Of a stretch of DNA of 64,000 bases, positions 26,775 to 47,371 are shown in pieces. Position 1 is the first letter of the stretch, and each line of letters starts with the position of its first letter. The notes below the pieces were generated by a model. It was not told the origin of the DNA. It saw only the letters and a list, made by a program, of their open reading frames with translations, and made no database searches. The translations under genes and the position numbers were made by a program. Source of the stretch: a virus (taxonomy: Duplodnaviria; Heunggongvirae; Uroviricota; Caudoviricetes); IMG/VR virus record IMGVR_UViG_3300022562_000659; one strand, written 5' to 3'.

Positions 26775-27373
26775 TTGTTAAGGTATGGTGCCATCCTACC
26801 GCCTATCGCTAGGAGTTGTCAATACTATTTTCGCGGTTTTAAAAAATTGTTGGAGTGTATTTTGAGTGGCCCTATTTTAGTAGATGAATTCTACCTAATA
26901 GGTAGGGTTACTCGGATGGCACTTATCCACAGTATCAAAATGTTGCGTGCGTGTCAACAAATTCAGGAATTACGTCAGGAGAGTTTCAAATTTGAGCCTG
27001 TTACTAAACACCCCGGTCAGGAAATTCAGGTTTGATTATAGCATTCTTTCAAATATTTTAATTCACTGCCTTCAATTTCTGAAAAGCTTGGTGGATATCA
27101 CAGTATATCCATTTTTGATCCATTCGCCATTCCAGGCCAGAAAATACAAGATTTGCCGGGGCAGAAATCCAGTCTAGTTTTCCTGGCAGAAACAGGGGTA
27201 ATTCAAGGACAGTATTAAGATTTCGATACAAAACTTGACACGGGGCCGAAAGTGTGCTACGCGCGGGTGCATTTTATATACGTTGCTAGCACTAATCCAG
27301 GCGGTTAAGTCCATCGATTAAATCGGTTTATTCTTTGCTTCGACCTCTATCGCTTGTCGCAAATAAATTTCCT

Positions 27374-27402
27374 CTTGACATGGGAACCATCTTGAGGTAT
27401 AA
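27374..27402 (+). promoter_or_regulatory. consensus sigma-70/sigma-A promoter (TTGACA-17 nt-TATAAT)
   Basis: TTGACA at 27374..27379, exactly 17 nt spacer, TATAAT at 27397..27402. It lies at the head of the plus block, about 70 nt upstream of the ATG at 27473. Confidence 0.6.
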
Positions 27403-27472
27403 TGGCTGTAAGCCAAATTTTATGTATCCAGTCAATCCGATGCATAAATCGCTTGCGGAAAGGGAGTCCACA

Positions 27473-28156
27473 ATGGAAACGGAAACCACAAATCCGGTTC
27501 CGGATAGCGACGACGAATTGCTCTCGGTTGCAATTCCACGTTCTCAAATCCTTCGGGAGAAGCGCCTTGCTGAAACTCGTTCCGGATTTGATAATGATGA
27601 TCTGGATTTGTTCGCAATCGCGGGCGTCGATCCTGATTCCAAGTCCCGAAAGCCTCGCGAGTATCGTTATTACAATCTGACTGCACGGTCGATTGATGAA
27701 ACGATCACCGAAACCGATCTGATTTCAACTCTCGCATTCCGTCGTCGTAATGAATATCGGAAGCAGGGATACAAGGTTGATTTGGTGGAAACGGTTTGCA
27801 GTGCCGAACCATTCCAGCCAGTCGATACGGAAATTCACTATAATCCCCAGTTTCCAGTTCCGGCTTACGTTGAGCCTGTGAATAAGACTCGTCGGTACAA
27901 TCCGACTAATACAGCCGCAATTCGACAGCGGGATCGCGCATTTCAGCAGGAAAACAATCGGCTGCGCAAAATCGCAGAACAGAATCAGAATAACAAGTGC
28001 TTCGTCCATTCCAAGTCCACAGGAGAAATGATCTTCGCTGGTACGCCCCTGGAATTGAATCACTATCTTCTTTCTCTTCATCGAAAGGGAATGCTTGATC
28101 TGACTCAAATCATCGTTTCCATTCCGGCCTCGATCAAAAAGCTGAATCGTGGATAG
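27473..28156 (+). CDS. hypothetical acidic protein (first gene downstream of consensus promoter)
   Basis: ATG after a GGAAAGGGAG RBS. The track ORF start at 27335 lies upstream of the promoter and is unlikely to be the real start. Confidence 0.45.
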   Translation: METETTNPVPDSDDELLSVAIPRSQILREKRLAETRSGFDNDDLDLFAIAGVDPDSKSRKPREYRYYNLTARSIDETITETDLISTLAFRRRNEYRKQGYKVDLVETVCSAEPFQPVDTEIHYNPQFPVPAYVEPVNKTRRYNPTNTAAIRQRDRAFQQENNRLRKIAEQNQNNKCFVHSKSTGEMIFAGTPLELNHYLLSLHRKGMLDLTQIIVSIPASIKKLNRG

Positions 28157-28367
28157 GATTATGGATACCGAAAAAGATATCGAGGATACCATTCGTATCC
28201 GGAATGCAGAGGGGAAAATCAGACAGCAAGTTTTGTCTGTTCTAGAACTAGCGGTTCCCGAAATTCGCGATTACTTGGTTCGTCCAAATCCCAATATCGA
28301 AGATGCCCTTTGGCGGCTAGATCAAATCGAAGAATTGATGATCAAACTTCGTAGGGAGAATTCATAA
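28149..28367 (+). CDS. hypothetical protein
   Basis: 72 aa. Confidence 0.35.
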   Translation: MDRIMDTEKDIEDTIRIRNAEGKIRQQVLSVLELAVPEIRDYLVRPNPNIEDALWRLDQIEELMIKLRRENS

Positions 28368-28720
28368 TGGCCGAGCATGAGGGAATTTCAGTACGCACGA
28401 TTAGCAATCCACATGATCTTGTGGAAAAACTTACGGGTGTAAGGCCAGATTCTGGAATTTGTATTCTTTGTAAGAATGCGCTTGTTTCTGGAATTGATAC
28501 TGATCATTCAGTTTGCAATTCCTGTTGGACAGAGACATTCAAGCACAAATACGAACCATACGATCCAGAAACGGAATGGACAATCGGTAATAGGGATGAT
28601 CGGTGCGGAACGTGTTATCTTCCTCTTGAACGTCATCGGGTAGGGGAAATGACAATGTACTGTCCGCCCCAGTGTAATATCTGTGATGAAGCGGAGAATG
28701 ATGAAATTCATATCAGGTGA
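28367..28720 (+). CDS. Cys-rich zinc-binding protein
   Basis: Multiple CxxC pairs (CILCKN, CNSCW, CGTCY, CNIC). Confidence 0.4.
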   Translation: MAEHEGISVRTISNPHDLVEKLTGVRPDSGICILCKNALVSGIDTDHSVCNSCWTETFKHKYEPYDPETEWTIGNRDDRCGTCYLPLERHRVGEMTMYCPPQCNICDEAENDEIHIR

Positions 28721-29163: not shown

Positions 29164-29385
29164 ATGGCTAACAATCAGGCGACTGTGGTTTCCGGTGTCG
29201 AGCGCATCTCTACTTCTGAGATCGTTGGTCTGACTGTGGATGATATCCGCGATCAGTTCTCGGATCTCCTGAACATTTCGGACGAGGCAACTGCTCTCGT
29301 CGGTGGAAATTCGGTTGAGGGAAACTACACGCTTAAGGCGGGCGATGAACTCGTTTTCAGCCGCGTTCTTGGTTCTAAGGGCTAA
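29164..29385 (+). CDS. ubiquitin-like beta-grasp protein (ThiS/MoaD/BilA-like Ubl)
   Basis: 73 aa, first gene of the operon. The GDELVF...G C-terminal pattern resembles the ThiS/MoaD C-terminus, ending ...VLGSKG. It directly precedes the E2-like, JAB and E1-like genes. Confidence 0.55.
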   Translation: MANNQATVVSGVERISTSEIVGLTVDDIRDQFSDLLNISDEATALVGGNSVEGNYTLKAGDELVFSRVLGSKG

Positions 29386-29398
29386 TTTTCTAACCCGA

Positions 29399-29446
29399 TA
29401 GAGATAAGGGGAACTTTAATTGGTTCCCCTTATCTCTTTTTATTGT
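29399..29446 (+). terminator. intrinsic terminator/attenuator immediately after the Ubl gene
   Basis: 14-bp perfect stem GAGATAAGGGGAAC-tttaatt-GGTTCCCCTTATCTC followed by TTTTTATT. Confidence 0.65.
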
Positions 29447-29485
29447 TCTAAAGTAATTTCCAATTCAATCTAAAGGAATAGTCAA

Positions 29486-30256
29486 ATGACAAATCAGCAA
29501 CTCCTTGTGGTTGATGGAAAGGTTTATGCAACCGCAATTGTCAGAGAGATTGATCCGCAGCAATTCCTGGATATTATGAGTAATGCGGCAACTCAGGCAA
29601 TTAATCTAACCCTTCCTCCATTCCCTGATAACACTCGGTGGTATCATCACGTTCCAAATCTGTTTTACGGATTTGTTGTTGAACTTCGACCGGGCCTTTT
29701 TACATTCAAGCATGAGCGATGGACTCGCTCTTTCAATGTGGCACTGCCGTGGCAGTATTTCGTTATTACATATTATTTTGATCTTGGAACCAGTGTTTGG
29801 AGAATGCAGACTCCTTCGCTTCTTTGGGGTAAGAATCGCGTTTCTAGGTTGACTGATCGAACTCTTTATCGACCAGAACTTCCGAACATTTTTGATGGTG
29901 GTTGTAACATTTGCATTGGTACAACTGCTCCTGATAGTCGGATGCATCCTTTTGAAAGGACCCAGGATTTTATTCAGACTTTCTATTCTGAAGCATCCCT
30001 GTTCAACGATGACTTGGATTGGGATTTCCCGAATGGGTATGATAATGCTGTTGAGTGGGCTAAAGCCTCTCGTGCAAATCCACTGTGCTGGATGAATTGG
30101 GATATCTTTGACACTAATAATAATTATAGCACATATCGATTGACCGATTACTTCACGCTGCCGCAGTATGATAGTAATGGCAATGAGATTTTCCCAATTA
30201 GAAATCTGGATGATGTTCTTCGACAGGCTCAGACTGTTGGTAGGAGGCCGTGGTAA
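29486..30256 (+). CDS. E2-like ubiquitin-conjugating-fold protein (putative)
   Basis: The segment LPNIFDGGCNICIG resembles the UBC active-site HPN-x-GxIC(L) motif with a catalytic Cys. It sits between the Ubl and JAB genes in BilA-B-C-D order. Confidence 0.45.
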   Translation: MTNQQLLVVDGKVYATAIVREIDPQQFLDIMSNAATQAINLTLPPFPDNTRWYHHVPNLFYGFVVELRPGLFTFKHERWTRSFNVALPWQYFVITYYFDLGTSVWRMQTPSLLWGKNRVSRLTDRTLYRPELPNIFDGGCNICIGTTAPDSRMHPFERTQDFIQTFYSEASLFNDDLDWDFPNGYDNAVEWAKASRANPLCWMNWDIFDTNNNYSTYRLTDYFTLPQYDSNGNEIFPIRNLDDVLRQAQTVGRRPW

Positions 30257-31521
30257 TGACTTCTAATCCCCTTAGTCTTTTCGATGTTCTTCCTCTGAAG
30301 GGGAAGTTGGAAGACCTTCCGGAGCCTACGGTTCCATATTTCTTTGTCGCAGGCGATGGCCTGTTTATGCGGCGAACAACTTCAATTGGAGTTGTTACCG
30401 AAAGGCAGAGTGAATGGCCGAAGCAACTTAAGAAGGCGGATATCAAGAACGGTAATCTCAAATATACTGCTCCGCCTATCCCACAGTCAATTATCGAGCG
30501 GGCCTGGGGTTTCTTTAAGTATGCTTTTGAGGAAAACCAGTCCGAAGCCGAGGTTTTGATTCTGTTTGATCCGGAGCGCAAGCGATATCGATTGTTTGCT
30601 CCACATCAGGAATGCACTATCGCTAGTGTTCACAGTCTTTATGACCCGGCAGATATCCCGAATGGATATCAGGTAATCGGCTCTATTCATTCTCATTGTG
30701 ACTTTGGTGCATTCCATTCAGGTGTGGATACTGATGATGCATCTAGTTTCAACGGATTGCATATCACTATTGGGCATGTGGATCGGGAAAATTCTCCCGA
30801 ATTCGCTGTCATGGTTATGCTTAATGGCCTTCGTTGGGATTACGAAATCACAAACGTGGCTGCGACTTCTGAAAAGATGACTCCGCGCGGTTTTCCGGCT
30901 GTGTGGAAGAACATGTTTGGAAGTTATACTGAGATTGCAGAGCGAGAATTCAAGAGCCTTACTCCTGATGATATCAAGAAGTGGACTGATTCTCGCAAGC
31001 CCAAGACGACTTTCAAGTCATCGGGTAGTTCAATCCTTACTGGTGCACGTATCTGGAATGGATACGATGACGATGATGATTCCTGGAATTGGTGGAGGTC
31101 TTGGGGTCCGAAGTCTCAGTCAGAATGGTCTTCTGATAGGGCTAAGGATAAGGCGGAAAAGAAGCGGGATTCTCGTTATACGGACGAGAACAAGAGCAAT
31201 CTTCGATACTGCTACGAGACTCGCGGTTACGTTCCCAAGCATTGGCTTGATTCCAAGGGAATGCTTCTGCGACAGTATATCGAAGAGGCATTTGAATTGG
31301 AGTTCGCAAGGCTGTTTGATGCAGCACTTACCCGTGGTTTTTGGGTTTCATGTTCCATCAATAAGATGGACGATGATACTATTGAAAAGTTTTCGGATAA
31401 TGCTGATGAGGCCGAGATTCGGCTTCTGAATGAGGGTAAGGATTATCTTCCGGGCTGGGCTACCGTGCGGGAGAATGAGGTTTCCTCTAGCGATACTCGA
31501 AAGTATGAGCCAGAGGATTAA
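30256..31521 (+). CDS. JAB/JAMM (MPN+) metalloprotease-domain protein with long C-terminal extension
   Basis: The upstream Glu is in FAPHQE. The complete JAMM motif HSHCDFGAFHSGVD (H-x-H-x7-S-x2-D) is present. ATG at 30256 follows a TAGGAGG RBS and overlaps the previous stop (TAATG). Confidence 0.7.
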   Translation: MTSNPLSLFDVLPLKGKLEDLPEPTVPYFFVAGDGLFMRRTTSIGVVTERQSEWPKQLKKADIKNGNLKYTAPPIPQSIIERAWGFFKYAFEENQSEAEVLILFDPERKRYRLFAPHQECTIASVHSLYDPADIPNGYQVIGSIHSHCDFGAFHSGVDTDDASSFNGLHITIGHVDRENSPEFAVMVMLNGLRWDYEITNVAATSEKMTPRGFPAVWKNMFGSYTEIAEREFKSLTPDDIKKWTDSRKPKTTFKSSGSSILTGARIWNGYDDDDDSWNWWRSWGPKSQSEWSSDRAKDKAEKKRDSRYTDENKSNLRYCYETRGYVPKHWLDSKGMLLRQYIEEAFELEFARLFDAALTRGFWVSCSINKMDDDTIEKFSDNADEAEIRLLNEGKDYLPGWATVRENEVSSSDTRKYEPED

Positions 31522-31526
31522 CCATT

Positions 31527-31829
31527 ATGGTATGGATTATTGTCTTTGGTAATCCAATGGAGGGGTTCAATTATATTGGCCCCTTCAATATCCTATCTGA
31601 AGCAGAGAGATACGCAACGGGTTCCAATCTTACAAGTGATTATTCATGGTGGATTGCTCCCGTAGAACGGCCTCGCGAATCCGACCTAAAGAAATTCTGT
31701 GAATACTTTCCCAGCCTGGCAATTGAGGAAAACTATCACGCAACTGAATGTATTGAATCTAATAGAGATCGCGGATCAAGTCCATATATTTGTCTTGCAA
31801 AGGCAAGTGCCTCGGAGAGTATGAAGTGA
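31527..31829 (+). CDS. hypothetical protein
   Basis: 100 aa between the JAB and E1-like genes. Confidence 0.35.
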   Translation: MVWIIVFGNPMEGFNYIGPFNILSEAERYATGSNLTSDYSWWIAPVERPRESDLKKFCEYFPSLAIEENYHATECIESNRDRGSSPYICLAKASASESMK

Positions 31830-32521
31830 CTTCCCGTTACCTTATGGTAGGTGCTGGTGGAACCGGAACCCATTTGCTGCACCCGTTGATCAATTATCTT
31901 GATACATTCCATACTGGCTCTGATTATCTGCTTGGAGTCATGGATGGAGATCAGGTCGAACAGAAAAATTTGTCTCGCCAACTGTTCCAGGCAACAGATA
32001 TCTACAGCAATAAGGCAAAAGCGGCGATCCATCCCTTTGAGTCCAATACAAGTGTTCGGGCATTTCCTGAATTTCTTGGTAAGGATAATATCGATAAGTT
32101 TATCACAGACGGTACTGTTGTTCTGATCTGTGTTGACAATTTCCCGGTGCGCGCCCGAATTGAGCAGCATTGCAATAACCTAGATAACGTTGTCGTTATC
32201 AATGGTGGAAATGAAGAGGATTCGGGCTCTTGTCAGATTTGGGTTAGGGAGAATGGGACTGATATCACGCCCCGGCTTTCCTTTCTGCATCCCGAAATCT
32301 ATAAGGTGGAAGAGGATCGCGCAGAACTTTCTTGTCAGGCAATTGCACAACTCCCCGGTGGAGAGCAATTGATTATCGCAAATATGAGTAGCGCCATGTG
32401 GATGCTTACAGCACTCATGGATTACCATCGTAGTAAGGTTTCTTGGACCGAGTTGCATTTTGATCTTTCTGCCGGAAAGACATTCGGTATGGATAACCGT
32501 ACTTTGAGCGGGTGGAAGTAA
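31790..32521 (+). CDS. E1-like ubiquitin-activating enzyme (ThiF/MoeB family)
   Basis: Rossmann motif MVGAGGTGT. E1 signature MDGDQVEQKNLSRQLF (DxDxVExSNLxRQ). A CxxC region is present. The start codon is uncertain (TTG at 31790 or downstream). Confidence 0.75.
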   Translation: MSCKGKCLGEYEVTSRYLMVGAGGTGTHLLHPLINYLDTFHTGSDYLLGVMDGDQVEQKNLSRQLFQATDIYSNKAKAAIHPFESNTSVRAFPEFLGKDNIDKFITDGTVVLICVDNFPVRARIEQHCNNLDNVVVINGGNEEDSGSCQIWVRENGTDITPRLSFLHPEIYKVEEDRAELSCQAIAQLPGGEQLIIANMSSAMWMLTALMDYHRSKVSWTELHFDLSAGKTFGMDNRTLSGWK

Positions 32522-32522: not shown

Positions 32523-32798
32523 ATGGGACATACAACTGAATGTACGATGCACCAACGGGCTAAAACTAATGGTGATCATCATTGGGGATGCGAATGCTGG
32601 TGCCATAAACAAATTACAAAACCTAATCCAACTTGGACATTTAATAAACTTGTAGCAGAAATTACAAAGTTGCTTCCAACAGCATCTTTTGCTTGTGATA
32701 ATGAAGGTCAGATTATTATCAATACCAATTTACAATTTCTGCAAGATTTGACCGGTGTAGCAACTGATACTCTTGTGGATATGCCTGATCCAGAATGA
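32523..32798 (+). CDS. Cys/His-rich small protein
   Basis: HHWGCECWCH. Confidence 0.4.
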   Translation: MGHTTECTMHQRAKTNGDHHWGCECWCHKQITKPNPTWTFNKLVAEITKLLPTASFACDNEGQIIINTNLQFLQDLTGVATDTLVDMPDPE

Positions 32799-33133
32799 AA
32801 TCCCTACCTCTATATCCTGGTGCTAAACCATGTGTTCAAAGTGGTTACTGTTGTAAAACAGCTCCTTGCTATTTTGGAGAGTGGGATGAGGAACGATCTC
32901 AATGCCGATATCTTGTATCATTATCAAATGAAGGAGGAAAAGATCAAAAATATTCGGAACCATACATTTGTCTCAAATATGAAGAAATCACGTCCCGCCC
33001 CCGAGCCGATTGGGAATCAAGCCCAGCATTCGGGGCAGGTTGTAGTTCCACACTTGGGAATACCGCCCGAGATCGAATCATTGAATCAGATCCTATTCGT
33101 TATCGCGATCTCCTTGCTGGACGAAATGTATAG
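32795..33133 (+). CDS. Cys-rich small protein
   Basis: CVQSGYCCKTAPC...CRY...C. An alternative overlapping frame (32820..33281) exists. Confidence 0.35.
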   Translation: MKSLPLYPGAKPCVQSGYCCKTAPCYFGEWDEERSQCRYLVSLSNEGGKDQKYSEPYICLKYEEITSRPRADWESSPAFGAGCSSTLGNTARDRIIESDPIRYRDLLAGRNV

Positions 33134-34268: not shown

Positions 34269-34556
34269 TTGATAAGAGGGCAGAGTTTTATAATGCGGGC
34301 TGTTACATTTGATGTGTATCATCAAACATATGATCCAGAAACTCATCGCATTATCACAAGGCTTGTAAGCGGAGGATACATGAAGTGGACGGATGCAGTT
34401 ATAGTCACATACGTTTTTGCAAGTAGTATTTGGGGATCATTTACTATTCGCAAGTGCGCTCACAATCTAACTGAAAGCACGCTTGAGTATCATTCCGCGA
34501 TTTCTGATCCCGATAATCTCAAGTCCATTCTTAAGAATACACTGGATTTTGATTGA
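34269..34556 (+). CDS. hypothetical protein
   Basis: 95 aa. Confidence 0.35.
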   Translation: MIRGQSFIMRAVTFDVYHQTYDPETHRIITRLVSGGYMKWTDAVIVTYVFASSIWGSFTIRKCAHNLTESTLEYHSAISDPDNLKSILKNTLDFD

Positions 34557-34563
34557 TAATGGT

Positions 34564-35214
34564 ATGCGTAATGTCATTCAATTTGCGTCGGGATTCGCAG
34601 CCCTAGGCTGCATTCTCGACTTTGATACAACAACCGGTGAAATGACAGTTACCGATGTTCCGAAAGAATTTCGAAAAACTGTCCATGCCGCACTAGAGGA
34701 TATTGAGTATTATGAAACTACATCGAATTATGGGGATGGAATCGCGATCTTCGCCTTGGCAAATACGGTGGATGGTTCTGATAATCCTATACGACATTCT
34801 GATCGTAATCGCATCCTGCATCGTATTCTTGGGTATGCTAATCCTGATGGTAAATTCTATCGCTCCGTAATCAACGATATCAAAGTACATAGAAGTTGGC
34901 ATTCTTCAAAAGAATCCAACACTTGTACATATTTTGGTAGTATCTGTACCAATCGCGGAGTTGATATTCCAGAAGGAAAACGAGGACGAAAGAGTTATCG
35001 TAGTCCGGATCAATTCCACCTAGCATCTAGCCGTGGAATTGCCCGTGAACAATTGGTGACTCCTAATCTCCAGGCATTGTATGATACAATTCCAGAAGGT
35101 AATTGTACCTCAAGCAATAACAAGAAGCCTGTAAACATTGAATCTCTGATCAAAACTCTCTCACCGGAGGAAGCAGCGATTCTAATCGAGCGATTGAAGG
35201 AGATTAGTAAATAG
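34564..35214 (+). CDS. hypothetical protein
   Basis: Internal ATG of track ORF 34483..35214, after the upstream stop. Confidence 0.4.
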   Translation: MRNVIQFASGFAALGCILDFDTTTGEMTVTDVPKEFRKTVHAALEDIEYYETTSNYGDGIAIFALANTVDGSDNPIRHSDRNRILHRILGYANPDGKFYRSVINDIKVHRSWHSSKESNTCTYFGSICTNRGVDIPEGKRGRKSYRSPDQFHLASSRGIAREQLVTPNLQALYDTIPEGNCTSSNNKKPVNIESLIKTLSPEEAAILIERLKEISK

Positions 35215-35215: not shown

Positions 35216-36112
35216 ATGTCTGTGTATAATACAACTCCAATTACCTCACATGTATGGCAAGATCATAAAGGATATCCACGTAACGAAAACGATCCACTTC
35301 AAAGTCGCTTCTGTCGTTCGATCATTAGAATCGAGGATGAGTTTGGAAATAGGTTTATCTGGTGTGATGGACTGCCCAATGAGCATCCAGCTAGAGAACC
35401 CAAAGAGCAAATCGCACTGTCTGATTTCATTGATGAGAAAGACCTAGAAATGATTGATCCCCAGCCGAAAATGACTGACACTGAAATGGTTCACAATTTC
35501 AACGCGCAGGCAGTAAATGATTTGTGCTTGCTTAGAAGTTGCAAGGCCCATATTACAGGTGGAATGCACCTCAAGCATAAACTCACAGACTCTAATATTA
35601 AATTTGTGACTCTTCCATCAACCACGAGCCTGTTTTCAATTCCATCATTGATGCGCAATAAGATCAATATTGAAACTGGTCGTAAGGCAGTTGCAACTAT
35701 TTGTATCATCTGCAATAAGAATCTGATTCCTACAGATGCAGATGCAATGTTCTGTGATAATTGTGAAAAGGCTGAATTCGGACACCAGTTTACACTTAAT
35801 AGGCGTCGTAATAGAGATTATGACGAGGATGAAGATCCCGATTACCTGTCCGAATTGGAAAACACATTTGGATACGATATCCGGTATGAGCGCTACAGCA
35901 ATTTGTGTGGATGCGCAAGGTGCTGGAAATATCGGGATTTCTATGCTATTCGTGGAGATATTTCTCTTCGTGAAGGCAATCATTGGGACGGAGATCGGAT
36001 TGTTTTTGAGGAGCATGAAAATGATCCACATATTCGTATTACAGATCCTGATGATTTGTCGTGTGGAATGTGCGATCTTCCCCGCACTCACCGTTACCAT
36101 ATCACGACCTAG
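35216..36112 (+). CDS. Cys-rich (multi zinc-finger-like) protein
   Basis: 298 aa with about 20 Cys, many in CxxC pairs (CDNCEK, CGCARC, CGMC). Confidence 0.45.
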   Translation: MSVYNTTPITSHVWQDHKGYPRNENDPLQSRFCRSIIRIEDEFGNRFIWCDGLPNEHPAREPKEQIALSDFIDEKDLEMIDPQPKMTDTEMVHNFNAQAVNDLCLLRSCKAHITGGMHLKHKLTDSNIKFVTLPSTTSLFSIPSLMRNKINIETGRKAVATICIICNKNLIPTDADAMFCDNCEKAEFGHQFTLNRRRNRDYDEDEDPDYLSELENTFGYDIRYERYSNLCGCARCWKYRDFYAIRGDISLREGNHWDGDRIVFEEHENDPHIRITDPDDLSCGMCDLPRTHRYHITT

Positions 36113-37860: not shown

Positions 37861-38260
37861 TCCGTTATCGTTATTCGTAATCGCTTTGCTCTATCGAAGG
37901 AATCTATCTATTGCATTTGACAACTGGTACGATTCGTGGTATACTGAACTAGTTCAGGAGTTGAGATTGAGGAAACGGAAACGCGATCCTCAATCCAGGT
38001 ATCCTAAACCGAAACCGGAAAGGCCAAACTGAATACGGAATATCGGTAGACACTCCGGTATGCCTTGGGAAAGCCCAAATGCCAAGCGGAACCAAGATCA
38101 CAACCGAGAATGCTGAAAGCAATTCCGATAGGAAATATTCAGGTCAAACTGAAGATCCGGTTTGCACCTTAACAACTGAATACCGACTCTGATACAGGTT
38201 CCCGAATCCCTGGTAGATACTGGGATTGCGGAGCCTATACGAGTTCCTGTTCTCAAATCC

Positions 38261-39037
38261 TTGAGAACAAAAGAGGTAGAAATGGCGCTTCAGTATTCCG
38301 ACACTGATCGCAAGATCACTGTCGAATTCAAGGACGGATGCAAGTACGAGTACCGATTCCAGTCTGCGGGATCGATGGGAGAATGCAAGGATCATTCCAA
38401 GAACTTCCATCAGACTCAGCATCCGGATCACGCACAGACAATGAAGGAATACGTTTCGGAACCCGAAATCCTCGATCCGATTCATCCTTGCATTTGCGAT
38501 AAGCCTCTCCAGAGGTATACCAGTACCAATATCGAGGCTCACCAGTACAATTGCCCTCAGGATTCGGCTGCCGGACTGCTTTGTCATAAGCATTTCGAAA
38601 GCCGCAGAGACATTGGCCGTTCCGCAATGCAATGGGAAGTTGCGGAATGCAAGGACTGCCAGAAAGCCCGAAAGGATAATGAGGCTCGCATTCAGCGAAC
38701 CGAAACCATTGATCCGAATCAGGAATACGGTAAGCACATCGTTCTGACGTGCAAACTGCATCCCGATCTCCGATGGAGTACCAAGAACATTTCTTATATC
38801 GGAGCGCGAACCCTGTTTTTCAATGGGAACGTGACTCACGATCACAAAGAGAACCCTACTCTTGTTCCTGAGTCGCTTCTGAAGGATGGAGTTACGGGTC
38901 CGGTTTACATGGACACTCCGTGTTCCCTTAGGCGAGAATTCTACGGGGATGGCATTTCGGGAACCGATCTCGACTGCGAATGCGATTGCTCAGTTGCAAA
39001 CCTGATCGTCTACAAGAAGACGGACGAAACCAAGTAA
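38261..39037 (+). CDS. Cys/His-rich protein
   Basis: An AAAGAGG RBS and an 8-bp hairpin (GTTCTCAA/TTGAGAAC) lie just upstream. Many C/H residues. Confidence 0.45.
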   Translation: MRTKEVEMALQYSDTDRKITVEFKDGCKYEYRFQSAGSMGECKDHSKNFHQTQHPDHAQTMKEYVSEPEILDPIHPCICDKPLQRYTSTNIEAHQYNCPQDSAAGLLCHKHFESRRDIGRSAMQWEVAECKDCQKARKDNEARIQRTETIDPNQEYGKHIVLTCKLHPDLRWSTKNISYIGARTLFFNGNVTHDHKENPTLVPESLLKDGVTGPVYMDTPCSLRREFYGDGISGTDLDCECDCSVANLIVYKKTDETK

Positions 39038-39117
39038 CCAATTGATTCAAAGAGAACAGGGACTCATATAGGCTCCGCAATTACAGAAAGAATCCTGTTA
39101 CGAAAGGGATTCCTAGG

Positions 39118-39507
39118 ATGGAAGAGATTTCGTTTGGTCCGGTAGTCAACCCGGACGGTTCCCCGACTGAATTCACCAAGGAAATGTTCAACGTAACCTC
39201 GGATGACATTCTGATCATCCGATACAAGAATCGCATGGAGCAACTTCGTTCTGCCATCGCGAATGACTTCGCTACGGAGAAGTGGAACACAGAGCAGTAT
39301 CGCGGAGCGACACTGCAAGCGACACTTGAATGTGTCAAGGAAATGCTCGATCTGCATTCCAAGATCCAGAAACTGGAAACCAAGAAGCACGACGAAATCG
39401 TGGCTGCACACTGCAAGTACGATTGCGGTTGTGCGGGTGGACAGTCATTCAGCGAATGCACTTTCGAACCCTCATGTTCAAGGTGCTGGCTGAACGGAAA
39501 GAGCTAG
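39118..39507 (+). CDS. hypothetical protein with C-terminal Cys cluster
   Basis: 129 aa. CKYDCGCAGG...C...C. Confidence 0.4.
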   Translation: MEEISFGPVVNPDGSPTEFTKEMFNVTSDDILIIRYKNRMEQLRSAIANDFATEKWNTEQYRGATLQATLECVKEMLDLHSKIQKLETKKHDEIVAAHCKYDCGCAGGQSFSECTFEPSCSRCWLNGKS

Positions 39508-39603
39508 CATAAATGGATTCGGGAGCCTATACCAGAGTCGGTATTCAACCATACAATTGCAGGGCCGTTATGAGCCTCTAATCCAATTACGAGGTACAAT
39601 TCA

Positions 39604-39825
39604 GTGACGTACAATTTCGCATACATTCCGTCACATGCGGACGGAACCATGGAGCGCGATGACAATCGCGTTGCACAGTCCGATCTCGATCTGAATTGCC
39701 CGTGTGGATACCGGGCACCGCACAACAGCCAGAAGTGCGAATTCAATCCCAACAATGACAACTACTTCCTGAAGGTTGCTCAGATTGAGGAATCCGAACT
39801 TCGGGTTCTGGACGGCAATCGGTAG
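39604..39825 (+). CDS. small Cys-containing protein
   Basis: 73 aa. Confidence 0.35.
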   Translation: MTYNFAYIPSHADGTMERDDNRVAQSDLDLNCPCGYRAPHNSQKCEFNPNNDNYFLKVAQIEESELRVLDGNR

Positions 39826-40075
39826 ACATGTTCCATTCCATCGTCGGAGCCAACAGCGGATTCACAAGAGTCGATCTTGAGAACGAAAGCGCCTGGGGAT
39901 TCCTCGTTTTCGTTCTCATCATTCTGGTAATCATCTTCATTGCGAGGGTGATTAGCCACTTCATTCACCGCTAACCATTCTTCGATTAGAGGCTCATATC
40001 GGTCCTGCAAAAGAATTGTGCAGAATCGATACGAGCCTCGATCTGTTACTTGGATAGTGCGAGGTTCGAATCGGA

Positions 40076-40345
40076 ATGGACATGATCGAACTGGTGATGG
40101 AAAGCATTCTGGCGAATGCGTGCTGGAGTTTCGTGTGGGAGGGCAATAAGGACCTTCGATACGTGACCCTCGATCTTCACTGCAATACTGCATGGGTGAT
40201 CTTCGGAAGCACAAACAACTGGGATTACCAATCCTCGGGTGGAAATTACAAGGTGATCTGGTGGTACATTCAGGGACAGCGTTCCACTGAGGAAATGCTG
40301 GAACTGATGCGCAACCGGTTCCCCAAGGAGAACTACGTAGCCTAA
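40076..40345 (+). CDS. hypothetical protein
   Basis: 89 aa. Confidence 0.35.
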   Translation: MDMIELVMESILANACWSFVWEGNKDLRYVTLDLHCNTAWVIFGSTNNWDYQSSGGNYKVIWWYIQGQRSTEEMLELMRNRFPKENYVA

Positions 40346-40502
40346 GCAATAAGAATAGATCGAGGCTCATACCGATTCTGCACGATAGATTGAGAGGTGC
40401 CAATGAGGAAATACACTTCCTGGAAATGTTCCTATTGTGGTAGGAGAAACTACTACAATAAGACGATCTGCTACCATTGTGCAAAGCGCAAAGGGAGAGC
40501 AA

Positions 40503-40841
40503 ATGGGAAAAAGGCTAACCCGAGCCGAGTATCACAATGCGGTGTGCAACAACGGCTGCGTTTGTGATAGGTGGTCCTCAATCAAGCGCCGAATCTGCGT
40601 TTCGTGTGACGATGAGAAGTACCACTTCGAATTCGAATACGGACAGCGGATCTGCCAGTCCTGCAAGAAAAAGGTAGAAGAGCAATGGCAAAGCGTTTTT
40701 CTTTCACAGTCACAGGCGCAGGAACATTCCCATTCGACATGCTCCGATACGATGGAGCATACCCAACCGACACCGAAAGTGCATACCAGATGGACACTCC
40801 GTATCGTCCATCTACTGAAAAACTTCGCGACTTCAATCTGA
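40503..40841 (+). CDS. zinc-ribbon protein (3' end uncertain; overlaps next gene in another frame)
   Basis: CNNGCVC...CVSCDDEKYHFEFEYGQRICQSCKK. Confidence 0.3.
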   Translation: MGKRLTRAEYHNAVCNNGCVCDRWSSIKRRICVSCDDEKYHFEFEYGQRICQSCKKKVEEQWQSVFLSQSQAQEHSHSTCSDTMEHTQPTPKVHTRWTLRIVHLLKNFATSI

Positions 40842-40939
40842 ACAAGCGAAGCGTGAACCTGATGTGCACTGACAGGGAGCCAACGGAAGCACGTTGGAAT
40901 TCCTTCGGTTGGAAAGTGGAAAACATTCGCCGTGTCTGA
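40685..40939 (+). CDS. hypothetical protein
   Basis: ATG after an AAGGTAGAAGAG sequence. Confidence 0.4.
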   Translation: MAKRFSFTVTGAGTFPFDMLRYDGAYPTDTESAYQMDTPYRPSTEKLRDFNLNKRSVNLMCTDREPTEARWNSFGWKVENIRRV

Positions 40940-41119
40940 TTACAAATCATTCACGCCGGGACATTCCAGATACCACAAGTGCTTCTGCAATTGTGGTTGT
41001 GAGATTCTTGTTTTTCGCGCAACAACGAAAGATCAACCTCGTTGTGACAAGTGCAAGAACAAGAACATTCACGGAACCAAGATCAAGAATTGAGGCTCCA
41101 AAGGGACAAGGTATACGCA

Positions 41120-41365
41120 ATGGACGATGACGATCTTATGGGAGTACTTGAAACACAAGTACAAACCTCAGCCAAAACCGCAATGACATTCCTCAAGGCT
41201 CTTCTGGTTCGGATGAATGATTCCGAGGCAGATATCACAACAGCATTGCTTGTTGCTGAAAGGGCAGTAGAAACCGCGAATAAGGATCTCAATTCGCTAA
41301 TCACAGCTCGAGCGCAAGCGCAATTCCACATGAGAATGATCAAGCAAAACCTGAAGAACAGGTAA
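41120..41365 (+). CDS. hypothetical protein
   Basis: ATG after an AAAGGGACAAGG sequence. Confidence 0.4.
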   Translation: MDDDDLMGVLETQVQTSAKTAMTFLKALLVRMNDSEADITTALLVAERAVETANKDLNSLITARAQAQFHMRMIKQNLKNR

Positions 41366-41379
41366 GAAGGAAAAAGACA

Positions 41380-41511
41380 ATGTGCCACTGCATTTCCTGC
41401 ATCTGCATCGCAATCACGACTCAGGACGTGTGCTACAATTGTCGAAACGGAAAGCATCATCGAGGACCAAAGGCAAAGAAACATAACGGAAAGAACAAGC
41501 ATCACAAGTAA
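41380..41511 (+). CDS. 43-aa Cys/His-rich peptide (MCHCISCICIAITTQDVCYNCRNGKHH...), not in ORF track
   Basis: ATG 9 nt after AAGGAAAAAG. It is followed directly by an intrinsic terminator. Confidence 0.4.
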   Translation: MCHCISCICIAITTQDVCYNCRNGKHHRGPKAKKHNGKNKHHK

Positions 41512-41521
41512 CTGAAACGGA

Positions 41522-41562
41522 AAAAGGCCGGGAATTTCGATTCTCGGCCTTTTTCTTTGCCT
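41522..41562 (+). terminator. rho-independent terminator ending the 27.4-41.5 kb plus block
   Basis: AGGCCGGGAAT...TCTCGGCCT stem followed by TTTTTCTTTGCCTTTTTTC. Confidence 0.65.
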
Positions 41563-41873
41563 TTTTTCAAATATTCGATTTCTATAGGAAAAACGGCTTG
41601 ACGAGAAGCTATTCCAGGTGCTATACTTGATGCCGACAGTCGGGAAACGAAACGATGGATCTAGTCGTTTTCTGAAACGGTTTTCTAGAAAGGCTTCTAT
41701 AAAAAAGGGGGCTATACAATAACTCTTTCTATATACACATATACACCTATATAGAGATACATACAGGGGTAGTGGTAGGGAGTTGTAGGGTACAGCCCCA
41801 GGATGGATTAGGTGACTCAATAGTCACATATAATACAGCAAAAAATAAAACAAATATTCTATTTGCGATTCTT

Positions 41874-41935
41874 AAAATAGTGTTAGAAAAAAAATCCTGT
41901 TACTAAACGGGTACTCCAGGGACAATAGATTGTAC
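41874..41935 (+). repeat. direct repeat copy 1 (about 60 bp)
   Basis: AAAATAGTGTTAGAAAAAAAATCCTGTTACTAA... repeats at 41961 with a few changes. Confidence 0.6.
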
Positions 41936-41960
41936 GTGCGTGGTTCAATTCACTGATTTC

Positions 41961-42020
41961 AAAATAGTGTTACGAAAAAAATCCTGTTACTAAGGACCAG
42001 GGCCGGGGACAATGGACAGG
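41961..42020 (+). repeat. direct repeat copy 2 (about 60 bp)
   Basis: AAAATAGTGTTACGAAAAAAATCCTGTTACTAA... Confidence 0.6.
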
Positions 42021-42387
42021 CAATTCGCCAATTCGATTCCGAAAATGGTTTGCCGGTCGCGGTCGCCAGCGGAAAGCTTGGGCGGATCGCCAGTCGAATC
42101 CGGGAATAGAACGCCCATTCCATTTCGGAGCTCGAATAATCGATGATTTCGTGAATTCGATTCTTGAGCCTAAGATTCCTCGGAAAATCCAGGATTCCGC
42201 CTATGAATTATCGGGTTATCTGCCAGGTCAAGGCGAAACGTTAGGCGAATCCGCCGATCCACCTTCGATTCTTCGATTTGCAATCGCCGCTAGCAGGCGG
42301 TACGCTGGACACGTCCCGCGACGACGGCGGGACGGCGGAACCGGCCGCCCATCAGGAACCGGAACGAATCCCGGAAGGGGAAACGGA

Positions 42388-42696
42388 ATGGCTGGTACGA
42401 AGGAAGTTACGTGGACGATTCGCGAGGCGCGAGTCGAGCCGGGGAAGGCGGTCCGAAAGCCGACTGACCCGATCGCCACCATTCACGGGAAGATCGAGCG
42501 GAGCGACATGTCCGATCCGCTCAAGGGCAAGGAATTCACGGGCTGGACTGACGAGGCGAAGGCGGCTGGCTGGACAATCGACACCTCCGATCTCAAGTCG
42601 GAGGGCATCATCCGGGTGACGGGAATGATCGGGAAGGGAGGACGGCCCGCGCCAAAGATTCTCGAAGCCGACGACGCAATCGCACTGCTGTCCTAG
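42388..42696 (+). CDS. hypothetical protein in GC-rich island
   Basis: ATG after a GGAAGGGGAAACGGA sequence. The track ORF from 42151 has a low-complexity, Arg-rich N-terminus. Local GC is far above the genome background. Confidence 0.4.
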   Translation: MAGTKEVTWTIREARVEPGKAVRKPTDPIATIHGKIERSDMSDPLKGKEFTGWTDEAKAAGWTIDTSDLKSEGIIRVTGMIGKGGRPAPKILEADDAIALLS

Positions 42697-42706
42697 ACTC
42701 TAGAAA

Positions 42707-42750
42707 CGGAAACCCGGTCGGATTCTCCGACCGGGTTTCTCGTTTCCGGA
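42707..42750 (+). terminator. stem-loop terminator
   Basis: GAAACCCGGTCGGA-ttctc-CGACCGGGTTTC with a weak U-tract. Confidence 0.45.
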
Positions 42751-42823
42751 GCGCGCGGTGTTATGATAACAATCCAAAAATGTGGGAGGAATTTTTCCAG
42801 ATTTTCAGAAATTTCTACAGAAT

Positions 42824-43000
42824 CTACAATTCCGCCGCTAGGGTTCCGCCCATGAGTGCCGCTCCAAATACCAGTATTCCCGACAAGAGCAACTTCTCAG
42901 ACAAGCTGGTAGTATCTCCTGTCCAGATGGCACCCGCGATAAGAAGAATGCCGATAAGCATACCGATAGCGATAACCTTGTACGTGTTACTTCTCGTCAT
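42824..43000 (-). CDS. small membrane protein
   Basis: VIAIGMLIGILLIAGAIW and ILVFGAALMGGTLAA helices. Confidence 0.4.
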   Translation of the reverse strand: MTRSNTYKVIAIGMLIGILLIAGAIWTGDTTSLSEKLLLSGILVFGAALMGGTLAAEL

Positions 43001-43493
43001 CTGGCAATTCCCCGATTTCTTCAAGATGCGCCTTCCATGTGACCCTGTTGATGGCATCCGCAGATGCCTTCAAGTATGCGTACTCGCGCAGACGATCCTT
43101 TAGTTGTTCGACATGCTCAGGAAACTTCTCGGCAATCTTTGCCTCGATAGCCGCAAGTGCGTCCTCTGAACGCGCACGCAGATGCATGAGATCGAGTGCT
43201 GTCACTTCAACCTTGATCTTCCTCAACTCTTCATTGAATTCGTTGACGAAATCATGTTCATGGATAGCGTTCTTTCCACGCTCGTAATCATACCAGAACA
43301 ACTTGGTGTCCAAGTAGGCACTCAGGGCATCAAGTCCAGCAATAGGATCATCTGAATCTGAAATCTTCCGCAGGGAGTACAGCATCTTCTCATCGAGGAC
43401 TCCCGGCACGACCAAGGCAATTGTCAGGATTGCATCATAACTCTTGGCCTTCTCATCCAATTCCTTGAACTTGGAGAGGAAATTGTCAGTCAC
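42987..43493 (-). CDS. hypothetical protein
   Basis: 168 aa. Confidence 0.4.
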   Translation of the reverse strand: MTDNFLSKFKELDEKAKSYDAILTIALVVPGVLDEKMLYSLRKISDSDDPIAGLDALSAYLDTKLFWYDYERGKNAIHEHDFVNEFNEELRKIKVEVTALDLMHLRARSEDALAAIEAKIAEKFPEHVEQLKDRLREYAYLKASADAINRVTWKAHLEEIGELPDDEK

Positions 43494-43708
43494 TTTCGAT
43501 TCTTCCTTCTACTAGCATTCTGCATTCTTCGAAGCGCACGACGACGCTTCGTGTGATTGTGGGAGTGCAACTCCGAGTATTCCTTGGGTCGCTTGCTTGC
43601 CTCCACGGCATTGAGATAGTCTGCCTCTACCATTGAGAGGTAGACCTCATTCGGCATTGGCTTCTCGCCTATCGGCAATTCACGAATTTCTCCAGTGTCA
43701 GTATTCAT
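43490..43708 (-). CDS. hypothetical protein
   Basis: 72 aa. Confidence 0.35.
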   Translation of the reverse strand: MNTDTGEIRELPIGEKPMPNEVYLSMVEADYLNAVEASKRPKEYSELHSHNHTKRRRALRRMQNASRRKNRK

Positions 43709-44084
43709 TGTCTTCCTTTTCTGGTTCTAGTATTTGTGCGTGCCAGTAGCCTATAAGTCTTGCTGTCACGGATTCACATATCTGCGCCCGTTCTTTCTCT
43801 GCCACATGCAATTCCACGAGGTGTGGGTACAGGCATTCTGAAACTGCATTGAGCATGGATGCTGTCGGCTTAGGTGTCAAGCGACGATTGCAATTACCAC
43901 ATCTGCCATCAATGATGGGCATGCCAGCATGGTTACAGATAGGAACGATATATGCACGACGTGCATTCCATGCGAATACGATTCCAGCAGTGCAGGATAG
44001 GCAGATACCGTTGGTCAGGTCTGGTGTGTACTCGATATCACCGCATAATCGACACTCTGAGAAGTTTCTAGCGTCCGGTGGCAT
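43698..44084 (-). CDS. Cys-rich zinc-finger protein
   Basis: CRLCGD...CLSC...CNH...CGNC. The N-terminal extent is uncertain. Confidence 0.4.
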   Translation of the reverse strand: MPPDARNFSECRLCGDIEYTPDLTNGICLSCTAGIVFAWNARRAYIVPICNHAGMPIIDGRCGNCNRRLTPKPTASMLNAVSECLYPHLVELHVAEKERAQICESVTARLIGYWHAQILEPEKEDNEY

Positions 44085-44334
44085 GGCACACCACCCTTCC
44101 CTTGGTATCAGTTGGATACCTGTGAACAAGGGTGAAATCTCTTGAATTGCGCCGAATCTGTAATTGATCCTCGGGGCAATTATTTGCCACCGCAGCCTCA
44201 ATGATCTCGTTGAATGAGGACGCGCGAGCAACAATGTCTCGACGCTGCTTTTGCGGTGCTGGTTCTATGCGCCCACGACGGCGCTCCCGTTGAATGTGTG
44301 TGCCTACACGGCGACTGTGCATTTCTACCTCCAA
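44068..44334 (-). CDS. small basic putative DNA-binding protein
   Basis: Arg-rich N-terminus. It is the first gene after the divergent region at 44340..44560. Confidence 0.3.
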   Translation of the reverse strand: MEVEMHSRRVGTHIQRERRRGRIEPAPQKQRRDIVARASSFNEIIEAAVANNCPEDQLQIRRNSRDFTLVHRYPTDTKGRVVCHATGR

Positions 44335-44569
44335 AACAGGTGGACAACTCCACTCCCTAGAGTGTACGCCACCCCCAGCTCCACGATCAAGGACCTAGAA
44401 AAATAGTTGAAATTCATTTAATTTACCCTATTGTGGACATGTGACTATTCTGGTAGAATGGTTTTGACCATTCGACACCGTTCAGGGAGGTATGTCGTAT
44501 CGGCTGATTTTTCAACTGGCTTGAATTGCGTCCCAAAATCCGGTTTCAATTTCAAAAAGGGATAGCAAG

Positions 44570-44845
44570 TTGGAATACGAAATCAAGCGCCTGCCCGGAG
44601 AAGTGCCTGCCGAAGTGCATTTCAATGGCAGGCAGACTATCGCAATGCTCACCGTCAATGGAAATACGTTCGTCGGTACGGCAACCTGTATGAAGGGCGA
44701 TAAGTATTCCAAGGAAATTGGTGAGGGAATTGCGCTTAGTCGGGCTGCAAAGGTTGCAGCTAAGTACGAGGAAAATCTTTGGATTTCCCGTGCCGTGACT
44801 AAGGAGGATTGGGCAAAGAAGCACAACAAGAGAATCGCAAGGTGA
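44570..44845 (+). CDS. hypothetical protein
   Basis: 91 aa, TTG start. Confidence 0.4.
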   Translation: MEYEIKRLPGEVPAEVHFNGRQTIAMLTVNGNTFVGTATCMKGDKYSKEIGEGIALSRAAKVAAKYEENLWISRAVTKEDWAKKHNKRIAR

Positions 44846-45030
44846 CCGGCAACGCTGTTCGCACTTGTGGAAAGTGCAGTGAGGTTAAGCCACTCACAAC
44901 TGATAACTTCTACATTCTGCGGCCTAATGCAAGTCATCCAAAGGGAGGGTGGCAAGCACACTGCAAGACGTGTTGGAAGGATATCAACGCAGCCAACAAG
45001 CGCCGTCGCGCTATGGCATACTCGGGGTAA
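44809..45030 (+). CDS. zinc-ribbon protein
   Basis: CGKCSE...CKTCW. Confidence 0.35.
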   Translation: MGKEAQQENRKVTGNAVRTCGKCSEVKPLTTDNFYILRPNASHPKGGWQAHCKTCWKDINAANKRRRAMAYSG

Positions 45031-45042
45031 ATTCTCGGGGTA

Positions 45043-45081
45043 GAACGAAAAAAGAGAGGCCCGAAAGGGCCTCTTTTTTTA
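45043..45081. terminator. bidirectional rho-independent terminator
   Basis: AGAGGCCC-gaaa-GGGCCTCT is flanked by A6 and T8. It lies between convergent genes. Confidence 0.75.
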
Positions 45082-45306
45082 TCCTTTTACGGTGAATTTC
45101 AATCCTAATTTCTCATTGATCACCGATTCCCGATGAGACTGCACTACCATGATGTAATATTCATCGTTGAATTCTTGGAATGGCAATTGATCAAATTCTA
45201 CCTTGTATCCACAAGAGCAGCGGACACCGGCAGGATGGAATGTCTGATTCCATGCCAGTGATTCGTACCGTTCTATGACATGCTCTTCTATCTCGTTTTC
45301 AACCAT
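45079..45306 (-). CDS. hypothetical protein
   Basis: 75 aa. Confidence 0.35.
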   Translation of the reverse strand: MVENEIEEHVIERYESLAWNQTFHPAGVRCSCGYKVEFDQLPFQEFNDEYYIMVVQSHRESVINEKLGLKFTVKG

Positions 45307-46116: not shown

Positions 46117-46131
46117 CTATATCTCCTTATT

Positions 46132-47172: not shown

Positions 47173-47371
47173 TTTTCTTTACGCCTCTTTTTTATAAGAT
47201 AATCTCGTATATATGCGAAGATATATCTTTCTACAACATAGATGGCAAATATAATTAGCCCCCAATAAAGGGGATCTATTTCATAGTGAATCCACATTTT
47301 TGACTTTCACTCTATCCATAACCCAAGCTATCAACCCTTGCGATATCGATAGGGTTGATTGATAGCTCGCG

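Follow-up and report, generated by a model that had tools for sequence, protein, structure and literature searches.

The only function demonstrated by experiment to date for the conjugation of ubiquitin-like proteins (Ubls) in bacteria is defence of the host against phages, by the Bil systems and by Cap2/Cap3 of CBASS; the role of the Bub pathways is obscure. Another class, 6d, was predicted in 2006 (Iyer et al.) and is widespread on plasmids and on integrative and conjugative elements (ICEs). It corresponds to the PRTRC system (TIGR03734-03742), which brings together Prok_Ub, Prok-E2_D, a JAB peptidase and a ThiF-type E1 and has been described on plasmids, on ICEs and in one temperate Burkholderia phage; on a Cupriavidus plasmid the genes follow one another in the order ParB, E, C (the Ubl), F, B (the E2), A (the JAB) and ThiF. 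Here we examine a related gene set located at positions 29164-32521 of a 64,000-nucleotide stretch of DNA (the window) taken from a virus record of the Caudoviricetes in IMG/VR, IMGVR_UViG_3300022562_000659. It consists of five co-oriented open reading frames (ORFs) on the + strand, with mechanical lengths of 73, 256, 423, 100 and 243 amino acids (aa). An earlier note, made from the sequence alone, had read these five tightly packed genes as a complete phage-carried cassette for a Ubl, an E2-like protein, a JAMM peptidase and an E1-like protein. All five lie where it had placed them, every motif quoted there is present, and the core of that reading is upheld; what had to be changed is the family to which the cassette was assigned.

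Components of the cassette and their relatives

The 256-aa product of the gene at 29486..30256 (+) is, with the Ubl, one of the two components for which the earlier note had felt least secure, and it can now be assigned on four grounds, namely an invariant cysteine, matches of its relatives to Prok-E2_D and PRTRC_B, a profile-profile comparison and a structural model. The segment that had been likened to a UBC active site is LPNIFDGGCNICIG (residues 132-145, positions 29879-29920), which has the form LPN-x8-C-x-G and includes the predicted catalytic Cys143 (codon 29912-29914). A word-indexed homologue search returned nothing but the protein itself; an exhaustive HMMER search of 1.84 billion representative proteins gave 118 homologues (E <= 1e-3), of which 46 reached E <= 1e-10. 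Cys143 is the sole invariant residue of the family alignment, Pro133, Asn134 and Gly145 being present in at least 90% of the sequences, and the motif occurs as PN-x7-C-x-G (68 occurrences) or as PN-x8-C-x-G (22 occurrences). Canonical UBC enzymes, such as UbcH5, have the spacing HPN-x7-Cys, which the family motif appears to share. A match to Pfam Prok-E2_D (PF14460) was obtained for 53 of 115 family members and one to PRTRC_B (TIGR03737) for 30 of 115, and alignment by hhalign of the family profile with a seven-protein PRTRC_B alignment gave a probability of 97.0% (E 8e-11) over 130 columns, which take in the meander and the catalytic loop. No conserved histidine column was found in the family (114-115 sequences).

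AlphaFold prediction from the single E2 sequence reached a predicted local distance difference test (pLDDT) of 33 only, and an alignment of 114 sequences was used instead, which gave a pLDDT of 86.4 and a predicted template modelling score (pTM) of 0.78. The order of elements in the model is a helix, a four-stranded beta-meander, the PN loop, the cysteine and three helices. Comparison of such a model with known structures was a check that the earlier note had proposed, and the best matches in the PDB are indeed UBC E2s, with weak scores; since the scores are weak, the fold is better described as a divergent UBC-like one than as the textbook one, and the model would place the protein within the UBC/E2 fold superfamily as a divergent member. 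Among structural relatives in BFVD, the significant ones are found in other phages, and Acinetobacter phage ME3 is borderline. A scan of IMG/VR with the pattern MPWQYF gave 42 pattern matches, none of which was confirmed. PDB sequence searches with the E2 family, the JAB, canonical PRTRC_B and canonical PRTRC ThiF gave nothing meaningful; a match to LRR/YopM obtained in such searches is a low-complexity LPxLP artefact and was discarded. As a separate observation, 17 of 116 family members end with a tryptophan that follows a low-confidence tail, and the window E2 ends likewise (...GRRPW-stop, 30239-30256); this residue may serve in docking to the E1 or to the JAB.

The E1-like gene (31826..32521, +) carries GAGGTG at 31850-31867 and the adenylation signature DGDQVEQKNLSRQ at 31943-31981, as had been noticed, and its product of about 231 aa matches Pfam ThiF above the cut-off (E 1.2e-19, 70.8 bits). 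Its best match among NCBIfam models is PRTRC_ThiF (TIGR03736; E 4.7e-15 over 201 aligned residues), which outranks ThiF, MoeB and SAMP-E1. A single cysteine column is fully conserved in 13 of 13 phage and PRTRC ThiF proteins; it is Cys170 in the 231-aa numbering (codon 32333-32335), and a plausible candidate for the thioester site. The nearest solved relatives are the ThiF-type protein 9egc (3.6e-5) and Uba4 (1e-4), and no solved relative of PRTRC_B or of PRTRC ThiF was detectable by PDB sequence search.

The JAMM motif of the JAB metallopeptidase gene (30256..31521, +, 421 aa), which the earlier note had called full, is HSHCDFGAFHSGVD (30688-30729), an exact H-x-H-x7-S-x2-D, with the glutamate located upstream in SEAEV (30541-30555). 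It is intact in all six phage homologues examined (6/6) and is conserved in PRTRC_A as well, that of Cupriavidus having been aligned with it. The protein is built of an N-terminal domain, the JAB core and a W-, D- and E-rich extension of about 220 aa at the C-terminus. Besides a weak match to Pfam Prok-JAB (E 6.9e-5, 23.1 bits for a cut-off of 25), its only NCBIfam match is PRTRC_A (TIGR03735; E 1.7e-7), covering profile positions 29-190 of 192 (162/192). The extension was compared with PRTRC_F, as a possible fusion, and with gp250c of Salmonella phage Arash, as a possible relative, and proved to be neither.

As to the Ubl gene (29164..29385, +), it was recognized from its ORF and from the C-terminus conserved in its relatives; the predicted 73-aa protein ends with ...AGDELVFSRVLGSKG-stop, the VLGSKG noted previously being followed directly by TAA, so that a mature C-terminal Gly73 would be exposed from the outset. 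Orthologues located upstream of the family E2s (L003, L006, L007, L015, P0123 and P0124) are 72-80 aa long and all end with G-[STQ]-K-G-stop. In other relatives 1-5 extra residues lie beyond the terminal glycine (GEKG-VGTRF in P0125, GQKG-RR in L016, GRKG-I in L017), extensions which mirror those of ubiquitin and Bil precursors. The window family aligns with the Ubl repeats of Arash and of Vibrio phage D69 with a hhalign probability of 79-83% (E about 1e-5), and the homologues give sub-threshold matches to several beta-grasp Pfam families: Ub-Mut7C (0.0037), ThiS-like (0.1), TGS (0.13) and ThiS (0.16). A search of the PDB brought up ubiquitin at E about 1, and alignments of the profile with sequences of E. 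coli ThiS and MoaD and of human ubiquitin were plausible, with no statistical support from hhalign. The conserved terminus, the precursor-like extensions and the tri-Ubl of D69 described below lend indirect and contextual, but consistent, support to a Ubl with a flexible, Gly-ended tail and a putative beta-grasp fold.

Two side observations concern the Ubls of isolated phages. In Arash (OQ632216) an unannotated 66-aa Ubl ending ...FSRRTGTKG-stop is encoded at 107-307 of locus L002 (reverse strand, ~180513-180713), and the annotated gp251c (L002 102-320), which overlaps it, is apparently in the wrong frame. In D69, the 263-aa VPHD69_0307 (L014 382-1173), whose gene is upstream of those for E2, JAB and ThiF, contains three tandem Ubl repeats that all end with GTKG, the second and third being separated by an acidic linker, and resembles a precursor of the polyubiquitin type.

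The order small Ubl, E2, JAB and ThiF recurs in six metagenomic contigs (L003, of 65 kb, L005, L006, L007, L015 and L017), all of which show phage-like runs of small co-oriented genes, and in cultured isolates, namely Arash (gp249c-246c region) and Vibrio phages D69, D181 and D148. The order is thus kept in eight independent loci (the six contigs, Arash and D69). Given the score of the Pfam ThiF match (1.2e-19), the 118 E2 homologues and this recurrence in relatives, the arrangement is far beyond chance. The Arash cassette is complete, with the Ubl, gp250c, gp249c, E2 (gp248c), JAB (gp247c) and ThiF (gp246c); the D69 ThiF gene looks mis-annotated or split. Searches of 50,697 phage records (tblastn/blastn) with the window cassette and with the E2 gave no match, and ThiF and JAB alone gave weak matches which led to Arash and D69. 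In Arash and in D69, D181 and D148 the cassette genes are currently annotated as 'hypothetical' or 'structural'.

Several points weigh against reading the gene set as a working conjugation cascade. The window E2 has no direct match in Pfam, NCBIfam, PHROGs, PADLOC or the PDB, and the window Ubl has no above-threshold match in Pfam, Prok_Ub (PF14454) included; the hhalign probability of the Ubl with PRTRC_C is 11-25% only, so the link to Prok_Ub is not significant. The scores of the JAB with PRTRC_A (31 bits) and of the E1 with PRTRC_ThiF (55.6 bits) are far under the respective cut-offs of 101.8 and 144.75. The 'structural protein' labels of the Arash E2 and E1 say little, and we rejected them as evidence for a place in the virion, because the 116 proteins of the underlying mass-spectrometry list include ribonucleotide reductase (RNR) and RNA polymerase. 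No candidate for an E3 or for a target was identified. We found no description of a phage-encoded Ubl/E1/E2/JAB pathway in the literature, and none is mentioned in a survey that compared 224 jumbo phages. The only related report is one at the level of annotation, a 2026 paper noting a canonical PRTRC cassette, the function of which 'has not been studied', in a temperate Burkholderia phage.

Setting these points against the motifs, the homologies, the UBC-like model of the E2, the operon structure and the synteny, we regard it as probable that the cassette (Ubl, hairpin, E2, JAB, inserted gene and E1) is a working, minimal, phage-encoded Ubl conjugation cascade. The reactive Gly73 of the Ubl would be exposed from synthesis onwards, and the hairpin that follows the Ubl gene would probably make its message more abundant than that of the enzymes. 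The ThiF-type E1, presumably a homodimer like ThiF and MoeB, would use ATP to adenylate Gly73; the Ubl would then be moved onto the invariant Cys170 of the E1 and handed to Cys143 of the UBC-fold E2, which would transfer it by aminolysis to a lysine of the target or targets, with no recognizable E3 taking part. The JAMM peptidase could reverse or edit the conjugates and, in relatives with a tailed Ubl or a tandem tri-Ubl, could also mature the precursor.

Gene junctions, regulatory signals and genome context

The most likely start of the JAB gene is the ATG at 30256, which overlaps the TAA stop of the E2 gene (30254-30256, TAATG) and has AGGAGG just upstream; the resulting length of 421 aa, instead of the mechanical 423, is also that of an independent gene call for the JAB on a second contig. 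The inserted 100-aa ORF (31527..31829, +) begins 5 nt past the JAB stop, and its own TGA (31827-31829) overlaps the GTG at 31826 (GTGA). That GTG is the most likely start of the E1 gene: the mechanical ORF begins at TTG 31790 (243 aa), but the N-terminus read from GTG 31826, VTSRYLMVGAGGTG, agrees with that of the closest homologue, MLNRYTVVGAGGTG. The gene downstream of E1 starts 1 nt after the E1 stop. Such junctions are those expected of a translationally coupled operon, and the only real spacer, of 100 nt, is directly after the Ubl gene.

This spacer contains a hairpin and T-run (29400..29447, +), found by terminator search and folding energy, in which a perfect 16-bp stem is followed by TTTTTATTGTT. 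It is the best terminator-like site across 26.5-36.5 kb of the window, and its folding energy of -28.6 kcal/mol (z = -6.0) was equalled by none of 200 shuffles. Strong hairpins (z -3.4 to -6.0) occupy the same Ubl-E2 spacer in L003, L006 and L007. The element looks like an intrinsic terminator or an attenuator.

At 27375-27403 (+), where gene directions diverge at the head of the + strand block that includes the cassette, there is a sigma-70 promoter with a perfect match to the consensus (12/12; TTGACA, 17 nt, TATAAT). It falls within the mechanical ORF 27335-28156, the real start of which is probably further downstream. Being a consensus match only, it hints at expression, possibly early, by the host RNA polymerase, which would fit a role in takeover or anti-defence. 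No conserved promoter was seen upstream of the Ubl genes.

The 100-aa ORF is probably not a core component: it has no homologue in L003, L005, L006 or Arash and only weak matches elsewhere (phrog_11909, 0.0026; Ferritin, 0.0013), and the cassettes of relatives have small ORFs of other, unrelated kinds between their genes, at junctions that vary. It is also the only cassette gene with a TGA stop. This may be set beside a tRNA predicted by ARAGORN at 61262-61336 (+), with anticodon TCA (labelled SeC, UGA-reading), which may be a suppressor tRNA; read-through of the ORF would add just 6 residues.

The small Cys-rich proteins that had been noticed around the operon are indeed there, with CxxC pairs, on the + strand at 28367-28720, 32523-33133 and 35216-36112; any link with the cassette falls away, since they are not conserved beside it in relatives. 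For the same reason, and because they gave one sub-threshold double-zinc-ribbon match and no PHROG match, they were not retained as RING-like E3s. One non-core neighbour alone, the protein encoded at 34483-35214 (+; ~217-243 aa), was seen to accompany the cassette in three genomes; it has no Pfam or PHROG match, and its homologues are near the cassette in L003 (11507-12160, 50% identity) and in L006 (605-1252, 38%), where the gene is upstream of the Ubl.

At a larger scale, PHROG matches in the window include DnaB, primase, clamp loader, RNR, PolA, an exonuclease, a deoxynucleoside monophosphate kinase and a DNA methyltransferase, and nine tRNAs are clustered at 55900-61794. In content the window resembles the portion of a large phage genome devoted to replication and nucleotide metabolism. 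Of the window ORFs scanned, none was recognized as a capsid or terminase gene, so the viral assignment rests on gene content and on the homologous cassettes of bona fide phages; no close relative of the window was found among the 50,697 deposited phages. A block at 38000-48000, with a G+C content of 0.47-0.52 against ~0.42-0.45 elsewhere, mixed strand orientation and a dehydrogenase-like gene at 46132-47172 (-; phrog_9582), may have been acquired.

Possible roles of the cassette

Our best guess is that the cassette tags host or phage proteins during infection, in host takeover or in conflict with host defences. Around it are small genes without an assigned function, with replication modules on either side and the perfect sigma-70 consensus promoter upstream, and its plasmid cousins are found in maintenance or establishment regions. 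The more general proposition is that large lytic phages run their own Ubl tagging system during infection, with a dedicated E1, a UBC-fold E2, a JAMM protease and, in Vibrio phages, a tri-Ubl precursor of polyubiquitin style. Host or phage proteins would be marked covalently, and defences might, for example, be disarmed, proteolysis redirected or virions assembled in this way; to this we would give an even chance.

A narrower reading, which we consider rather unlikely, is that the cassette serves mainly to neutralise Ubl-based immunity of the host (Bil, or Cap2/Cap3 of type II CBASS), either with the JAB stripping host Ubl or cGAS conjugates, or with the phage Ubl and E2 acting as a decoy or as an inactivating tag on defence proteins. 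Hosts are known to use Ubl systems as weapons against phages; the carriers of the cassette are large phages of lytic type, in which it lies among early-looking genes behind a consensus sigma-70 promoter. Moreover, the large additional C-terminal domain of the JAB could recognize foreign substrates, and the plasmid and ICE cousins have as neighbours genes for ParB, SNF2 and methyltransferases, as is typical of establishment regions. However, this purpose would be served by a deconjugase alone, whereas the Ubl, E1 and E2 are strictly conserved together, their catalytic residues included, and with the PADLOC models no resemblance in sequence to components of Bil or to Cap3 was seen.

The functional gene order, which is that of BilABCD, together with the frequent presence of defence systems on mobile elements, could suggest instead that the Ubl is put on virion (tail) proteins of competing phages, resulting in superinfection exclusion. 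This we find improbable: the proteins match no Bil HMM (hidden Markov model) and no known defence family of PADLOC, the E1 has a different architecture, and the carriers look lytic, with their own replication machinery, so that long-term exclusion would pay little.

We are even less inclined to believe that the Ubl, E1 and JAB form a thiocarboxylate system of the ThiS/MoaD/CysO type, active in the synthesis of a cofactor or thionucleoside or in DNA or tRNA modification, and that the 256-aa protein is not an E2 at all. The E1 does match ThiF/MoeB/Uba4 models as well (1e-10 to 1e-14), and a PDB search also brought up Uba4. The tail of the Ubl (GDELVF....G) is similar to those of ThiS and MoaD, with weak ThiS-family matches, and sulfur operons made of Ubl, JAB and E1 are known (rows 4a-4e of Iyer et al., 2006). 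Nevertheless, an E2-fold protein with an invariant cysteine is strictly co-conserved, there is no rhodanese domain in the cassette proteins and no sulfur partner among the scanned neighbours, the best match of the E1 is PRTRC ThiF and not a biosynthetic ThiF, and the poly-Ubl precursor of D69 fits tagging, not sulfur carriage. A role in segregation of the element's DNA, which annotation papers suggest when they call PRTRC, literally 'ParB-related, ThiF-related cassette', a 'ParB/ThiF partitioning cassette', is hardly credible, as the 64-kb window (by tblastn) and the related phage loci have no homologue of ParB or PRTRC-E/F, and the enzymes present are protein-modification enzymes.

Returning to a phage-run tagging system, its interest lies mainly in that it can now be tested in cultured phages. 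The branch seen in the window is reduced to four catalytic parts and recurs in many uncultured phages, and more distant versions exist in cultured phages with known hosts (Arash; D69, D181 and D148), so that the role is directly accessible to phage genetics and proteomics. If our reading is true, this would be the first complete virus-encoded Ubl conjugation pathway among prokaryotic viruses, and it would open a first way to the function of the orphan PRTRC/6d family. A virus using the very chemistry that its host turns against viruses would add a new layer to the arms race between phages and hosts, and the cassette also bears on ideas about the origin of ubiquitin signalling.

Comparison with known ubiquitin-like systems

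Among phages, the TAPI-TAPK pair of lambda and T1 offers a parallel, since there too a phage Ubl with a conserved C-terminal glycine stands beside a JAB peptidase (TAPK being a JAB plus NlpC/P60 protein). This pair lacks E1 and E2 and is part of the tail gene cluster, whereas the window cassette has full activation machinery and lies among genes of replication or early type. The sulfur-carrier systems (ThiS-ThiF, MoaD-MoeB, CysO-Mec+) resemble it by their single-domain ThiF-type E1 and by a small protein with a flexible C-terminal glycine, which in some of them is trimmed by a JAB. They have no E2, however, and always come with a sulfur-transfer or biosynthetic partner; the window has an E2 and no detected partner, Pfam having revealed no ThiG, MoaE, CysM, sulfurtransferase, cofactor enzyme or rhodanese in the cassette proteins and ten of their neighbours. 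The earlier note had considered a consistent grouping of the E1 and JAB with such operons fatal to its reading; the best NCBIfam matches of both are PRTRC models. The Bub pathways, which use serine oxyesters and a Ser-His protease, BubE, differ in that the predicted E1 and E2 nucleophiles of the window are invariant cysteines and the protease is a JAMM enzyme. With type II CBASS the cassette shares E1, E2 and JAB chemistry on a C-terminal Gly or Ala, and the PADLOC E1-E2 models give weak matches (at best 3.7e-5) to the Rossmann motif region of its E1. But Cap2 is an E1-E2 fusion that acts on a CD-NTase, while here E1 and E2 are separate and there is a dedicated Ubl; no nucleotidyltransferase or effector gene was found beside the cassette in the scanned neighbours, and no known defence family was recognized in it by PADLOC.

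The likeness to BilABCD, to which the operon had been matched at first, is real as far as function goes: the order Ubl, E2, JAB deubiquitinase and E1 is the same, and both Bil Ubls and relatives of the window Ubl have a conserved glycine that further residues may follow (0-9 removable ones in Bil, where the JAB matures the Ubl and also deconjugates it). Yet BilABCD is not the closest family. The PADLOC models of BilA, BilB and BilC matched none of the window proteins, and that of BilD matched the E1 at E 0.03 (11 bits) only. The Bil E1 is multidomain, with inactive (IAD) and active (AAD) adenylation domains and a mobile, Cys-bearing CYS domain, whereas the window E1 consists of one adenylation domain only, 231 aa long. 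In the E2 of Bil a histidine is conserved beside the cysteine, and this histidine is absent from the window E2; further, Bil is a host defence, the window cassette being phage-borne. It is the PRTRC models that match best, and class 6E, that of type I Bil, must therefore give way to class 6d in the assignment. Type II Bil, for its part, is class 6c/CEHH of Iyer et al.

The canonical PRTRC family is itself architecturally variable: several NCBI-annotated cassettes among the plasmid loci L010-L013 are without a recognizable PRTRC_A (JAB) gene, and a Deinococcus plasmid has two PRTRC B/ThiF pairs. The differences between it and the window cassette are several. Class 6d E2s, as described by Iyer et al. 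(2006), lack the classical histidine but have a conserved one after the cysteine, and this histidine (S-x-F-T-H) aligns with a conserved S-x-F-N-x-D in the phage E2s. The extra C-terminal region of about 220 aa in the window JAB is not present in PRTRC_A. Canonical PRTRC_C proteins match Prok_Ub (PF14454) at 1e-23 to 1e-27, and no phage Ubl matches it. With ParB, PRTRC-E and PRTRC-F of Cupriavidus and Marinobacter as tblastn queries, nothing below E 0.8 was obtained in the 64-kb window, and the three are absent from the related phage loci too. Direct HMM matches of the window proteins are far below the curated cut-offs or missing, and window-type cassettes are carried by large phages that encode a replication machinery of their own. 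The likenesses, on the other hand, comprise homology to B, A and ThiF. Both have the C-B-A-ThiF core order on a mobile element; PRTRC_A is the only, and PRTRC_ThiF the best, NCBIfam match of the window JAB and E1, respectively; the E2 is without the classical histidine of HPN (LPN in the window); and the G-x-K-G terminus of the Ubl and the invariant cysteine of the E1 are common to both, canonical PRTRC_C proteins ending with LGTKG-stop, with GAKG plus 8 residues, or with T/A-N-G-stop. Since ParB, E and F are absent and the direct scores are under the cut-offs, the cassette is best seen as a phage-specific variant of a known, uncharacterised kind: judged from these comparisons, its closest known family is PRTRC/class 6d, of which it forms a stripped-down and divergent branch.

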